DNA of 64,000 nucleotides, taken from Escherichia coli (GTDB taxonomy: Bacteria > Pseudomonadota > Gammaproteobacteria > Enterobacterales > Enterobacteriaceae). The notes below the pieces were generated by a model. The model made no database searches. It saw only the letters and a list, made by a program, of their open reading frames with translations, and had not been told where the DNA came from. Where the stretch lies: assembly GCF_030013205.1 (NCBI RefSeq), contig NZ_CP122648.1, one strand, 5' to 3'. Below are positions 66 to 63,520 of this stretch, piece after piece; the first letter of the stretch is position 1; each line of letters starts with the position of its first letter. Position numbers and translations under genes: made by a program.

Positions 66-1118
66 ATGAAAAAGACAGCTATCGCGATTGCAGTGGCACT
101 GGCTGGTTTCGCTACCGTAGCGCAGGCCGCTCCGAAAGATAACACCTGGTACACTGGTGCTAAACTGGGCTGGTCCCAGTACCATGACACTGGTTTTATT
201 CCTAACAATGGTCCGACCCACGAAAACCAACTGGGTGCAGGTGCTTTTGGTGGTTACCAGGTTAACCCGTATGTTGGCTTTGAAATGGGTTACGACTGGT
301 TAGGTCGTATGCCGTACAAAGGCGACAACATCAACGGCGCATACAAAGCTCAGGGCGTTCAGCTGACCGCTAAACTGGGTTACCCAATCACTGACGATCT
401 GGACATCTACACTCGTCTGGGTGGTATGGTATGGCGTGCAGACACCAAGGCTAACGTACCTGGTGGCGCATCTTTTAAAGACCACGACACCGGCGTTTCT
501 CCGGTTTTCGCTGGCGGTGTTGAGTACGCGATCACTCCTGAAATCGCTACCCGTCTGGAATACCAGTGGACCAACAACATCGGTGACGCACACACCATCG
601 GTACTCGTCCGGACAACGGCATGCTGAGCTTGGGTGTTTCCTACCGTTTCGGTCAGGGCGAAGCAGCTCCAGTAGTTGCTCCGGCTCCAGCTCCGGCACC
701 GGAAGTACAGACCAAGCACTTCACTCTGAAGTCTGACGTTCTGTTCACCTTCAACAAAGCAACCCTGAAACCGGAAGGTCAGGCTGCTCTGGATCAGCTG
801 TACAGCCAGCTGAGCAACCTGGATCCGAAAGACGGTTCCGTAGTTGTTCTGGGTTACACTGACCGCATCGGTTCTGACGCTTACAACCAGGGTCTGTCCG
901 AGCGCCGTGCTCAGTCTGTTGTTGATTACCTGATCTCCAAAGGTATCCCGGCAGACAAGATCTCCGCACGTGGTATGGGCGAATCCAACCCGGTTACTGG
1001 CAACACCTGTGACAACGTGAAACAGCGTGCTGCACTGATCGACTGCCTGGCTCCGGATCGTCGCGTAGAGATCGAAGTTAAAGGCATCAAAGACGTTGTA
1101 ACTCAGCCGCAGGCTTAA
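66..1118 (+). CDS. ompA: Outer membrane protein A (OmpA), variant surface-loop allele
   Basis: ORF track 9..1118 trimmed to ATG at 66 (signal peptide [21 protein letters not shown]); 350 aa; full-length match to E. coli OmpA with differences confined to extracellular loops; C-terminal OmpA-like peptidoglycan-binding domain. Confidence 0.95.
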
Positions 1119-1131
1119 GTTCTCGTCTGGT

Positions 1132-1161
1132 AAAAAACCCCGCTGCTGCGGGGTTTTTTTT
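1132..1161. terminator. Rho-independent terminator between convergent ompA and matP (likely bidirectional)
   Basis: A-run, 6-bp GC stem CCCCGC/GCGGGG with 4-nt loop, then T8 run; sits between ompA stop (1118) and matP stop (1194). Confidence 0.7.
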
Positions 1162-1193
1162 CGTCTTTAGAAAATTGAACTGACTTTCGTCAG

Positions 1194-1646
1194 TTATTCC
1201 TTACCCAGCAATGCCTGCAGATCCTGCTTCAAAGAAGACATTTTATTCGCGTATTTCTCTTTGTTTTCCGCATCTTCAATCAGCTGAACAATTGTTTCAG
1301 AAAGCGTTTTACCGCGACGCTGCGCAAGACCAGCCAGACGTTGCCAGACAATAAATTCCAGATCGATCGATTTTTTGCGCGTATGCTGGTGTTCCGCATT
1401 AAAATGGCGCTTCCGTCTGGCCCGAATGGTTTGCTTCATGCGATTGACCAGTTCCGGATTCATATGCTTGTCAATCCAGCCATTTACCAGCACGGGTTCA
1501 TTTTCCAGCGAGAGCAACACATCGACGGCTTCCTGGGCGGCACTGGCTTCTATGTAACGGGTGATTAACTCCCCTTCGCGGTGCTTCTTCACCAGATACT
1601 TCCATTTCCAACCGCTTTCAAGATTTTCAAGTTGTTGATATTTCAT
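1194..1646 (-). CDS. matP: Macrodomain Ter protein MatP
   Basis: 150-aa [30 protein letters not shown]...; length and sequence match E. coli MatP (YcbG); synteny next to ompA. Confidence 0.93.
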
Positions 1647-1831: not shown

Positions 1832-3592
1832 TTGACCATTACGAAACTTGCATGGCGTGACCTGGTTCCTGATACCGATAGCTATCAGGAAATATTTGCT
1901 CAGCCACATTTGATTGACGAAAACGATCCTTTATTCAGTGATACTCAACCGCGACTGCAATTTGCGCTGGAGCAGTTGCTGCATACGCGAGCATCCTCCT
2001 CTTTTATGCTGGCGAAGGCCCCGGAAGAGTCTGAGTATCTGAATCTTATTGCCGATGCCGCGCGTGCGCTACAAAGCGATGCAGGCCAACTGGTGGGCGG
2101 TCACTATGAGGTTTCCGGGCACACCATCCGCTTACGTAACGCAGTGAGTGCAGATGATAATTTTGCGACTTTAACGCAAGTTGTCGCTGCCGACTGGGTA
2201 GAAGCGGAACAACTCTTTGGCTGCCTGCGCCAGTTTAATGGCGACATTACCCTGCAGCCAGGTCTGGTGCATCAGGCAAATGGCGGTATTCTCATCATCT
2301 CTTTGCGTACACTGCTGGCGCAACCTCTGCTGTGGATGCGGCTGAAAAATATCGTTAACCGCGAGCGTTTTGACTGGGTTGCGTTTGATGAGTCGCGCCC
2401 TCTCCCCGTCACTGTGCCTTCGATGCCATTGAAGCTGAAAGTCATTCTGGTAGGCGAACGCGAATCATTGGCTGATTTCCAGGAGATGGAACCAGAGCTT
2501 TCAGAGCAGGCTATTTATAGCGAATTTGAAGATACTCTGCAGATTGTCGATGCGGAGTCAGTAAGCCAGTGGTGTCGCTGGGTGACATTGACCGCCAGAC
2601 ATAATCACTTACCTGCACCAGGAGCGGATGCCTGGCCGGTACTTATCCGCGAAGCAGCCCGCTACACCGGTGAACAAGAAACACTTCCGCTTAGCCCGCA
2701 GTGGATCCTCCGCCAGTGTAAAGAGGTCGCCTCCCTGTGCGATGGCGACACCTTCTCCGGCGAGCAGCTAAACTTAATGCTGCAGCAGCGTGAATGGCGT
2801 GAAGGTTTCCTCGCTGAACGCATGCAGGATGAGATCCTTCAGGAGCAAATCCTGATTGAAACCGAAGGCGAATGCATCGGGCAAATTAACGCCCTTTCGG
2901 TCATTGAATTTCCGGGTCATCCACGCGCTTTTGGCGAACCTTCTCGCATTAGCTGCGTTGTGCATATTGGCGATGGTGAATTCACCGACATCGAACGCAA
3001 AGCGGAGCTTGGCGGCAATATCCATGCGAAAGGGATGATGATCATGCAGGCGTTCCTGATGTCGGAACTACAGCTTGAGCAACAGATCCCCTTCTCAGCA
3101 TCGCTGACATTTGAGCAGTCATACAGTGAAGTGGATGGCGATAGTGCCTCGATGGCTGAACTCTGCGCCCTGATAAGCGCCCTCGCCGATGTGCCGGTGA
3201 ATCAGAGTATCGCTATCACAGGTTCAGTCGATCAGTTCGGTCGTGCCCAGCCGGTCGGTGGTTTAAATGAGAAAATCGAAGGCTTCTTTGCTATTTGCCA
3301 GCAACGTGAGTTAACCGGGAAACAAGGTGTCATTATCCCCACTGCTAACATTCGCCATTTAAGTCTTCACAGTGAACTGGTGAAAGCGGTAGAAGAAGGC
3401 AAATTCACCATCTGGGCAGTAGACGATGTGACTGACGCACTGCCGTTATTATTAAATCTGGTGTGGGATGGCGAAGGCCAAACGACGCTGATGCAAACCA
3501 TCCAGGAACGTATCGCGCAAGCATCGCAACAGGAAGGACGTCACCGTTTTCCATGGCCATTACGTTGGCTGAACTGGTTTATTCCGAACTGA
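1832..3592 (+). CDS. ycbZ: Lon-like protease homolog YcbZ (LonH)
   Basis: 586-aa [25 protein letters not shown]...; matches E. coli YcbZ in length and sequence; synteny matP-ycbZ-fabA. Confidence 0.93.
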
Positions 3593-14352: not shown

Positions 14353-15363
14353 TTAGATATGGGTAACGATTTCTTTAATCAGCGGCGGACCTTTAAAAAT
14401 AAAACCAGAATAAATTTGCACCAGTGAGGCCCCCGCAGCAATCTTTTCACGCGCAGCGATAACCGAGTCGATGCCGCCAACACCGATGATCGGTAAGCGA
14501 CCATTTAATTCCTGTGATAAACGGCGAATAATTTCGGTGCTTTTTAACTGAAGCGGACGACCACTTAAGCCACCGGTTTGATCACAATTTTTCATTCCCT
14601 GAACCAGAGAACGATCGAGTGTGGTATTGGTTGCAATAACGCCATCAATATTATGGCGAACTAAACTATCGGCAACCTGGATCAATTCTTCTTCAGAAAG
14701 ATCCGGCGCGATCTTCACTGCGATCGGCACATATTTATGGTGCATCGCTTGCAAATCATTTTGCTTATTTTTAATCGCGGTTAAGAGATCATCCAGCGCT
14801 TCGCCATATTGCAGAGTACGTAATCCCGGTGTATTCGGCGATGAAATATTGATGGCGATATATCCCGCATAAGCATAGATTTTTTCCATACAAATCAGAT
14901 AGTCATCTTTACCCTGCTCCACCGGCGTATCTTTATTTTTGCCGATGTTAATACCCAGGACGCCATCATAATGGGCTTTTTTTACGTTCTCTACGAGGTT
15001 ATCAACGCCAAGATTATTAAAGCCCATACGGTTGATCAAACCTTCGGCATCTACCAGACGAAAGAGACGCGGCTTGTCATTACCTGGCTGTGGACGTGGC
15101 GTGACGGTACCGATCTCGATCGATCCAAATCCCATCGCGCCTAACGCGTCAATGCACTCCCCGTCTTTATCAAGACCGGCTGCCAGACCAAGCGGATTTT
15201 TAAACGTCAGGCCCATGCAGTTAACAGGTTTCGCAGGCACTTTCTGCCGCACCAGTGCTTCAAACGGCGTTCCTGTAATACGGCGTAATTGCTGAAAAGT
15301 AAACTCATGAGCGCGCTCTGGATCGAGCTGGAAAAGGGCTTTACGAACGAAGGGGTAGTACAT
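14353..15363 (-). CDS. pyrD: Dihydroorotate dehydrogenase (quinone) PyrD
   Basis: ORF track 14353..15390 trimmed to ATG at 15363 ([21 protein letters not shown]...); 336 aa; matches E. coli PyrD. Confidence 0.95.
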
Positions 15364-15448
15364 GAACTCTCCTGGATTCCCGGTGTGCAAACCGGGGGCG
15401 TATTATGTGCGAGTTCGGACCAAAAGGGAATTGACCTGTGGCAATAAA

Positions 15449-26129: not shown

Positions 26130-27218
26130 ATGATGAAGCGCAATATTCTGGCAGTGATCGTCCCTGCTCTGTTAGTAGCAGGTACTGCAAACGCTGCAGA
26201 AATCTATAACAAAGATGGCAACAAAGTAGATCTGTACGGTAAAGCTGTCGGTCTGCATTATTTCTCCAAGGGTAACGGTGAAAACAGTTACGGTGGCAAT
26301 GGTGACATGACCTATGCCCGTCTTGGTTTTAAAGGGGAAACTCAAATCAATTCCGATCTGACCGGTTATGGTCAGTGGGAATATAACTTCCAGGGTAACA
26401 ACTCTGAAGGCGCTGACGCTCAAACTGGTAACAAAACGCGTCTGGCATTCGCGGGTCTTAAATACGCTGACGTTGGTTCTTTCGATTACGGCCGTAACTA
26501 CGGTGTGGTTTATGATGCACTGGGTTACACCGATATGCTGCCAGAATTTGGTGGTGATACTGCATACAGCGATGACTTCTTCGTTGGTCGTGTTGGCGGC
26601 GTTGCTACCTATCGTAACTCCAACTTCTTTGGTCTGGTTGATGGCCTGAACTTTGCTGTTCAGTACCTGGGTAAAAACGAGCGTGACACTGCACGCCGCT
26701 CTAACGGCGACGGTGTTGGTGGTTCTATCAGCTACGAATACGAAGGCTTTGGTATCGTTGGTGCCTATGGCGCCGCTGACCGTACCAACCTGCAAGAAGC
26801 TCAACCTCTTGGCAACGGTAAAAAAGCTGAACAGTGGGCTACTGGTCTGAAGTATGACGCGAACAACATCTACCTGGCAGCGAACTACGGTGAAACCCGT
26901 AACGCTACGCCGATCACTAATAAATTTACAAACATCAGCGGCTTCGCCAACAAAACGCAAGACGTTCTGTTAGTTGCGCAATACCAGTTCGATTTCGGTC
27001 TGCGTCCGTCCATCGCTTACACCAAATCTAAAGCGAAAGACGTAGAAGGTATCGGTGATGTTGATCTGGTGAACTACTTTGAAGTGGGCGCAACCTACTA
27101 CTTCAACAAAAACATGTCCACCTATGTTGACTACATCATCAACCAGATCGATTCTGACAACAAACTGGGCGTAGGTTCTGACGACACCGTTGCTGTGGGT
27201 ATCGTTTACCAGTTCTAA
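26130..27218 (+). CDS. ompF: Outer membrane porin OmpF
   Basis: 362-aa [41 protein letters not shown]... ending ...VGIVYQF; essentially identical to E. coli K-12 OmpF. Confidence 0.97.
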
Positions 27219-52774: not shown

Positions 52775-53485
52775 AATAAATATCCTCCGGCATAGCCGGA
52801 GGTTTTTCAAATGCGCCTATAAGGCTCTCTTACCAGCCGCGCCCTAACAGGCGCACACGATCTGACATTTGCATCCAACTTCGTTACTTACGGCCCGTAA
52901 ACGGGCTGCCCGGATAGGGAATCGATAACTGCTCTCCCATTTTATCCTCTTCAAGCTGGTGCTTTATGTAATCCTGTATCTTCGCCGTGTTCTTACCCAC
53001 CGTATCGACGTAGTACCCTCTGCACCAGAACTCTCTGTTCCTGTATTTGAATTTCAAATCACCAAACTGCTCGTAAAGCATCAGACTGCTTTTCCCTTTC
53101 AGATATCCCATAAAGCCGGATACGCTCATTTTGGGCGGGATCTCCACAAGCATATGGATATGATCTGCACAGCATTCAGCTTCAAGAATCCGTACGCTTT
53201 TCCACTCACACAGCTTTCTCAAAATACTGCCTATTGCTCTACGCTTCTCTCTGTAGAACACTTGTCTTCGGTATTTTGGCGCAAAAACTATGTGATATTT
53301 ACAGTTCCATCGGGTGTGCGCTAAGCTCTTTTCGTTCCCCATTGGGACCCCCTTTTGATTTCTTGTTTGACACTTGCAGTTGCCAGACCGCAAGGTGTTT
53401 TAACAAATCAAAAGGGGTTTTAATAACTGGCTCAAAGCTGAAAGCTTTCCGGAACCCCCAGCCTAGCTGGGGGTTTTCTGTGCAC
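52775..53485 (-). mobile_element. IS200 insertion sequence (IS200/IS605 family), about 0.71 kb, tnpA only
   Basis: Contains a 152-aa Y1/HuH transposase ORF with the recalled hallmark features of IS200 (twin subterminal GC hairpins at 52784..52802 and 53455..53473, and an RBS-occluding inverted repeat in the tnpA leader). Boundaries estimated (+/- about 20 bp) from hairpin positions and the canonical ~707-bp length; not confirmed by alignment. Confidence 0.7.
52884..53342 (-). CDS. tnpA: IS200 transposase TnpA (Y1 HuH single-strand transposase)
   Basis: ORF track 52884..53393 trimmed to ATG at 53342 preceded by AAGGGGG RBS; protein MGNEKSLAHTRWNCKYHIVFAPKYRRQVFY...ADHIHMLVEIPP...YPGSPFTGRK matches the recalled IS200 TnpA (HuH motif HIH, catalytic Tyr region); 152 aa. 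Confidence 0.9.
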   Translation of the reverse strand: MGNEKSLAHTRWNCKYHIVFAPKYRRQVFYREKRRAIGSILRKLCEWKSVRILEAECCADHIHMLVEIPPKMSVSGFMGYLKGKSSLMLYEQFGDLKFKYRNREFWCRGYYVDTVGKNTAKIQDYIKHQLEEDKMGEQLSIPYPGSPFTGRK

Positions 53486-63354: not shown

Positions 63355-63520
63355 TTCCGCTCTGCATAAATAATTCAGAGCTCTATTTCTAACGCCCTTA
63401 CAGCACAGCTTCCAAATGTATTACCCAAACCGCCAGTATATGTCCTGCGGCTTACGCGCATTTCTCGATTATGTAAAAACGGGTCAGATCTGCCAGAGTC
63501 AGCGTCACCGACCACAATAA

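Follow-up and report, generated by a model that had tools for sequence, protein, structure and literature searches.

Clustering of some 86,000 E. coli OmpA sequences by Sorgenfrei et al. (2025; PMC12259851) gave two main isoforms of the protein, which were named OmpA-short and OmpA-long after the length of loop 3; OmpA-long is defined by an 11-residue variable stretch of this loop. The most frequent sequence of each isoform was crystallised with an isoform-specific nanobody (PMC12259851), PDB 9FZD being the complex of OmpA-long with the nanobody Nb39. In the classification of Liao et al. (2017; PMC5413513), the polymorphic sites of the loops are residue 25 (loop 1), residues 66-68 (loop 2) and residues 108-114 (loop 3) (their Table 3A). 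Pattern III of this classification combines P25, DNI, the 11-residue loop 3 and a histidine in loop 4, and accounts for 14.1% of isolates (Table 3A), the long loop 3 itself being common to patterns II and III; C-terminal type beta is defined by A175, T203 and G251 (Table 3B). Three of the 78 isolates (numbers 6, 117 and 146) are entered in the published tables under pattern III as well as under type beta, while the seven alleles tested experimentally by the same group include (III, gamma) and not (III, beta) (PMC5413513, PMC9560509). ompA2, an allele described by Power et al. (2006), is the same as pattern II, the term ompA2-type being applicable also to the loop 3 described below; in their PCR assay, primed on the segment coding for ANVPGGA, 43% of 524 isolates are reported as positive. 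Gophna et al. (2004) are reported to have found pattern III in the O78 strain 789 and in CFT073. More generally, Chen et al. include ompA in their list of E. coli porin genes with "mosaic evolution," that is, local recombination and selection in loop regions.

The gene considered here lies at the beginning of a stretch of E. coli DNA of 64,000 nucleotides, which was analysed as a whole and is referred to below as the window. It is almost certainly an ordinary functional ompA of the common OmpA-long class, allele (III, beta), belonging to one of two old classes that differ almost exclusively in a block of about 310 bp. The allele is already known: thousands of its sequences have been determined, it bears a name, it has been crystallised, and its phenotype has been studied in part. 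It cannot be called unusual; E. coli has two main OmpA isoforms, and OmpA-long is one of them.

The ompA gene and its genomic surroundings

The coding sequence occupies positions 66 to 1,118 of the plus strand (350 codons plus stop). Its product is covered over residues 1-350 by the NCBIfam equivalog NF008071, "porin OmpA" (674.3 bits against a cut-off of 277), and in everything that was tested for membership it agrees with the enterobacterial OmpA family. The signal peptide of 21 amino acids (66-128, plus strand), which is the length reported for OmpA (PMC9560509), is identical to that of K-12 and is followed by the mature start APKD found in the PDB chains. The eight-stranded beta-barrel membrane domain takes up precursor residues 22-196 (129-653, plus strand), as supported by PDB 9FZD and by the Pfam model PF01389 (OmpA_membrane), matched over residues 23-199 with E = 1.2e-79. 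The periplasmic peptidoglycan-binding domain (741-1,028, plus strand) corresponds to Pfam PF00691 (residues 226-321, E = 8.7e-24) and matches also the C-terminal domain chains 2MQE and 4ERH in the PDB. Mechanical calling of open reading frames extends the gene upstream to a GTG at nucleotide 9 (a frame of 369 amino acids on the plus strand, the additional part being 9-65), which we reject as an artefact: the ATG at position 66 is the true start, because it yields the canonical 21-residue signal peptide and coincides with the RefSeq annotation of strain K_EC180.

The window begins inside the 5' untranslated region of ompA, so that the promoter of the gene falls outside it. Downstream, an intrinsic terminator (1,132-1,167, plus strand), made up of a G+C-rich stem of 12 bp and a run of T behind it, was recognised both by the terminator scan and in the sequence itself; it is followed by matP (1,194-1,646, minus strand) and ycbZ (1,832-3,592, plus strand) in the same order as in K-12 and Salmonella. 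The ompA-matP-ycbZ part of the sulA-ompA-matP-ycbZ order is thus present, sulA lying upstream of the window start.

E. coli K_EC180, isolated from swine faeces in South Korea, has a chromosome that matches the window over its whole 64 kb with 99.997% identity and in which the same protein is annotated as porin OmpA, WP_000750418.1. The only two differences between these sequences are an additional T in a T-run at about 25,744, in the asnS-ompF intergenic region, which shifts the downstream coordinates by +1, and a single mismatch inside gloC at about 28,804. Several other features of the window may be recorded here. A match to the Rfam PyrD leader (15,358-15,431, minus strand, 97.9 bits) is found, as expected, upstream of pyrD. 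Between ycaL and aroA there is an element of the IS200C family (approximately 52,884-53,475, minus strand), whose tnpA is annotated in the near-identical K_EC180, and a match to the Rfam STnc490 Hfq-binding sRNA (53,352-53,475, 146 bits) lies just upstream of tnpA. Between pflA and ycaM (about 63,410-63,520, plus strand) a short gene fragment, a hypothetical protein without N-terminus, is annotated in K_EC180. As for another porin gene of the region, ompF (26,130-27,218, plus strand) is of the K-12 type and differs from PDB 3HW9 by the single substitution T269I (precursor numbering); with only one substitution in ompF, an ompA whose loops are not of the K-12 class is combined in this strain with a K-12-like ompF.

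Surface loops and the divergent block

The K-12 reference for the protein comparison was OmpA of strain RP437 (RefSeq WP_000750416.1), and the residues that differ are given in this section in mature numbering. The two proteins differ by eight substitutions and an indel of four amino acids; seven of the substitutions and the indel are located in loops 1-3, the eighth substitution being N203T. In loop 1 the codon CCT (201-203, plus strand) specifies Pro25 in place of Asn encoded by AAC in K-12 (N25P), which gives FIPNNGP instead of FINNNGP. In loop 2 the codons at 324-332 (plus strand) specify DNI at residues 66-68, where K-12 has SVE (S66D, V67N, E68I); the K-12 string KGSVENGAYK has a counterpart of the same length, ten residues, in the window. 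Loop 3 (450-482, plus strand) has a variable stretch of 11 residues against the seven of K-12 (SNVYGKN), owing to 12 extra nucleotides at 464-475; it differs by S108A, Y111P, the four extra residues GASF and N114D, and the indel is in frame. Seen in the alignment, the K-12 string TKSNVYGKNHDTG has a counterpart of 17 residues. The same loop differences are obtained in PDB alignments to the K-12-type chains 3NB3 and 9FZC. In loop 4 the polymorphic residue (591-593, plus strand; GDAHTIG) is a histidine encoded by CAC, as in K-12, which places the allele in pattern III and not in pattern II. Finally, the codon ACC at 747-749 (plus strand; AAC in K-12) brings about N203T in the periplasmic dimerization region. 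The C-terminal part has no other difference from K-12, whose alpha type is A, N, G, and its type is accordingly beta.

These results bear directly on an earlier note on this DNA, made from the sequence alone, in which the gene was taken for ompA with a variant set of surface loops. The family and domain models and the alignment agree with this identification. The three loop strings reported there for the window, as well as those given for K-12, prove to be exact at every residue when aligned to WP_000750416.1; the check proposed there, a protein alignment to K-12 OmpA, was carried out, and identity of the loops to K-12, the outcome which had been named as speaking against the note, is excluded. 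The span of 190-500 given for the variant region fits the block delimited below well. The note went further in asserting that both the barrel core and the periplasmic domain match E. coli OmpA: this is right for the barrel strands, while the match of the periplasmic domain is imperfect, N203T having been overlooked.

With respect to described alleles, precursor residues 22-195 of the window protein, loops 1 to 4 included, are 100% identical to OmpA-long in chain A of PDB 9FZD, a construct without the periplasmic domain, so that N203T is outside the structure. No difference was found between the window protein and the Liao allele (III, beta), i.e., P25, DNI at 66-68, loop 3, the loop-4 histidine, A175, T203 and G251. 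The ompA2 allele, or pattern II, has the same loops 1, 2 and 3 and differs in having asparagine instead of histidine in loop 4; asparagine is also found at this position in OmpA of Shigella flexneri (P0015 in our set). K-12 OmpA, allele (I, alpha) (1BXW, 1QJP, 9FZC), shares with the window protein an identical signal peptide, barrel strands, loop 4 and Pro-rich linker, its periplasmic domain is identical save for one residue, and matP and ycbZ are arranged alike next to both genes.

At the nucleotide level the differences from K-12 are concentrated in a divergent haplotype block at 195-506 (plus strand, about 310 bp), which encodes loops 1 to 3 and separates the long and short classes. Identity to K-12 is 90.0% in the block and 99.3% in the remainder of ompA: about 300 aligned nucleotides of the block contain 30 substitutions in addition to the 12-nt indel, against five substitutions in the other 740 or so (Fisher p = 1.4e-12 for the clustering). 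Synonymous differences are distributed in the same manner, 14 inside the block and four outside it (p = 1.9e-5). The flanking matP-ycbZ region differs at about 1 to 3 of every 100 nt. Because the synonymous changes cluster in the block too, we regard it as a segment of an old diverged haplotype and not as a set of fresh or selected point mutations. Conserved strands combined with a few recombining loop types make up the very pattern that Chen et al. call mosaic evolution.

The allele is widespread. The exact 350-residue protein is encoded on at least 1000 contigs under the name "MULTISPECIES: porin OmpA [Enterobacteriaceae]." The DNA of the long loop 3 is present at 95% identity or more in 2061 of the 5426 complete E. 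coli genomes (about 38%), a 321-nt stretch covering the block was matched at 99% identity or more in 1142 records, and the entire ompA gene gave 370 matches at 99% or more among the complete E. coli genomes; an exact 61-mer around the T203 codon occurs in 1741 of 5425 genomes. Five ompA-like matches in the collection are on plasmids. One of them, the 4668-bp plasmid NZ_CP097216.1 of E. coli BE311, carries at about 635-978 a gene annotated as "outer membrane beta-barrel protein" which is 90.7% identical to nucleotides 199-554 of ompA and represents a plasmid-borne copy of its barrel/loop region.

Origin of the loop haplotype

The outgroup sample was small: three OmpA proteins of Salmonella enterica and one of Yokenella, all from the same 90% cluster, with codon-by-codon comparison of nucleotides for two of the Salmonella genes. 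In this sample, loop 1 is FIPNNGP, with P25 as in the window, in two of the three Salmonella proteins, the third (P0012) having FINNDGP; loop 2 is KGDNINGAY, with the DNI of the window, in all three; and loop 3 is of the long form in all three (e.g., SNVPGGPSTKD), its residues differing in detail from those of the window. Elsewhere the Salmonella proteins have about 6% amino-acid differences from the window protein, the nucleotide identity being about 90-92%. Loop 3 of the Yokenella protein is short. In the two genes compared by codon, the window block 195-506 is 89.7-90.4% identical to Salmonella and the K-12 block 86.7-87.3%, while outside the block both E. coli alleles have 91.6% identity. 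The window block thus being nearer to Salmonella than the K-12 block is, the long class looks less derived, and the short loop 3 of K-12 is probably a derived 4-residue deletion on a faster-evolving or imported haplotype, as far as can be judged from these few sequences. In this connection the description of loop 3 in the earlier note as carrying a 4-residue insertion needs to be amended: the four extra residues are there, but a deletion in the K-12 type is the likelier origin of the difference.

Other explanations of the block were weighed against the assignment to an old, common class. The loop differences might have been caused by recent phage- or immune-escape mutations in the strain's own lineage, i.e., by point mutations and a small insertion, and it is true that the ompA mutations of strains selected in the laboratory for resistance to phages or colicins mostly affect loops 2 and 3 (introduction of PMC9560509). 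However, such a recent event is at variance with the occurrence of the identical protein on at least 1000 contigs and of the long loop 3 in 38% of the complete genomes, the same loop states are found in Salmonella, and the 14 synonymous changes within the same block are not what selection acting on a handful of residues would leave behind. Taken together, the frequency in the population and the synonymous clustering rule recent escape out, and we give it hardly any chance of being correct. Even less can be said for a sequencing or assembly artefact or a wrong K-12 sequence in the earlier note: it would be suggested only by general caution, whereas the RefSeq sequence of a K-12 derivative and the PDB sequences match the K-12 loops given there, the indel is in frame, and the window is 99.997% identical to an independently obtained complete genome. 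The K-12 references, the in-frame indel and the match to K_EC180 dispose of this explanation entirely.

Import of the block by recent recombination from another species, such as Salmonella or another enterobacterium, into a K-12-like ompA deserves slightly more attention, although we still consider it very improbable. The divergence has sharp edges, at about nucleotides 195 and 506, with 99.3% identity outside; the loop residues match those of Salmonella; and local recombination has been reported in the loop regions of ompA. Nevertheless, in the block the two Salmonella genes tested reach only about 90% identity, which is close to the divergence between the species seen outside it (91.6% identity), and, because the divergence in the block about equals that of the rest, a recent import from Salmonella is contradicted. 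Moreover, the K-12-type block is even more divergent from Salmonella (about 87%), so that the short class is the better candidate for import or fast evolution. Recombination among E. coli lineages, by which two old classes are shuffled, fits the data better than import does.

As to the age of the dimorphism, the E. coli classes differ by 10% in the block, which is to be compared with 8.4% between E. coli and Salmonella outside it, for which reason a great age is possible. We put forward, as a speculation that we ourselves hold to be rather unlikely, that the long/short dimorphism might be a balanced polymorphism at least as old as the split of Escherichia and Salmonella, in which the long class would be ancestral, the short one derived, fast-evolving or imported, and both kept by frequency-dependent selection exerted by phages. 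If true, such an old balanced polymorphism would extend, not overturn, the published description of ompA as evolving in a mosaic manner.

Expected effects on phages, antibodies and other ligands

The barrel strands, the Pro-rich linker and the peptidoglycan-binding domain being K-12-like, the basic functions of OmpA should be unchanged, i.e., the protein would act as an eight-stranded outer-membrane barrel with a periplasmic peptidoglycan-binding domain. The block is predicted to alter the surface epitope only, loops 1 to 3 forming exposed surface, and the two classes would be told apart by ligands that read the loops, such as the Gp38 adhesins of T-even-type phages, antibodies and nanobodies. 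Many OmpA functions are insensitive to the loop class, as we gather from the work of Liao et al., which counts for a small effect. [quoted passage not shown]

The earlier note expected an altered susceptibility, OmpA loops being receptors for phages and colicins and targets of host defence. For the window allele, an altered phage susceptibility and antibody recognition would follow by analogy from published experiments with the same loop types, which support this expectation. Natural OmpA loop variants placed in an ompA deletion of MG1655 changed the host range of Straboviridae (PMC12032242). In that study phages with "type 1" Gp38 (FL08, AV119) infected all eight ECOR OmpA variants, while "type 2" phages (FL12, FL18, FL20) infect only variants with loop 3a or 3b together with loop 2a; variants 1, 3 and 4 have E89 in loop 2, the residue of the permissive variants (PMC12032242). 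E89 belongs to the K-12 SVE form of loop 2, and the window protein has I89. We infer indirectly, from I89, that the window allele would lack loop 2a and be non-permissive for type 2 phages. With respect to binding proteins, Nb39 binds OmpA-long only and Nb01 OmpA-short only, each of them contacting all four loops (PMC12259851). As for conjugation, OmpA is bound by TraN of F-like plasmids; in the case of TraN-gamma, from the F plasmid, it is the OmpA of E. coli and not that of Klebsiella that is used.

The allele, its frequency, the crystal structure and the consequences for phages and antibodies having already been published, the finding has little significance as a discovery. Its value is rather in typing: the strain should be recognised by OmpA-long reagents such as Nb39 and not by OmpA-short ones such as Nb01, and it is probably no host for those OmpA-dependent phages that need loops 2 and 3 of the K-12 type. 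Results obtained with K-12 OmpA on phage receptors, vaccine epitopes and loop insertions for surface display need to be checked before they are transferred to the strain of the window.
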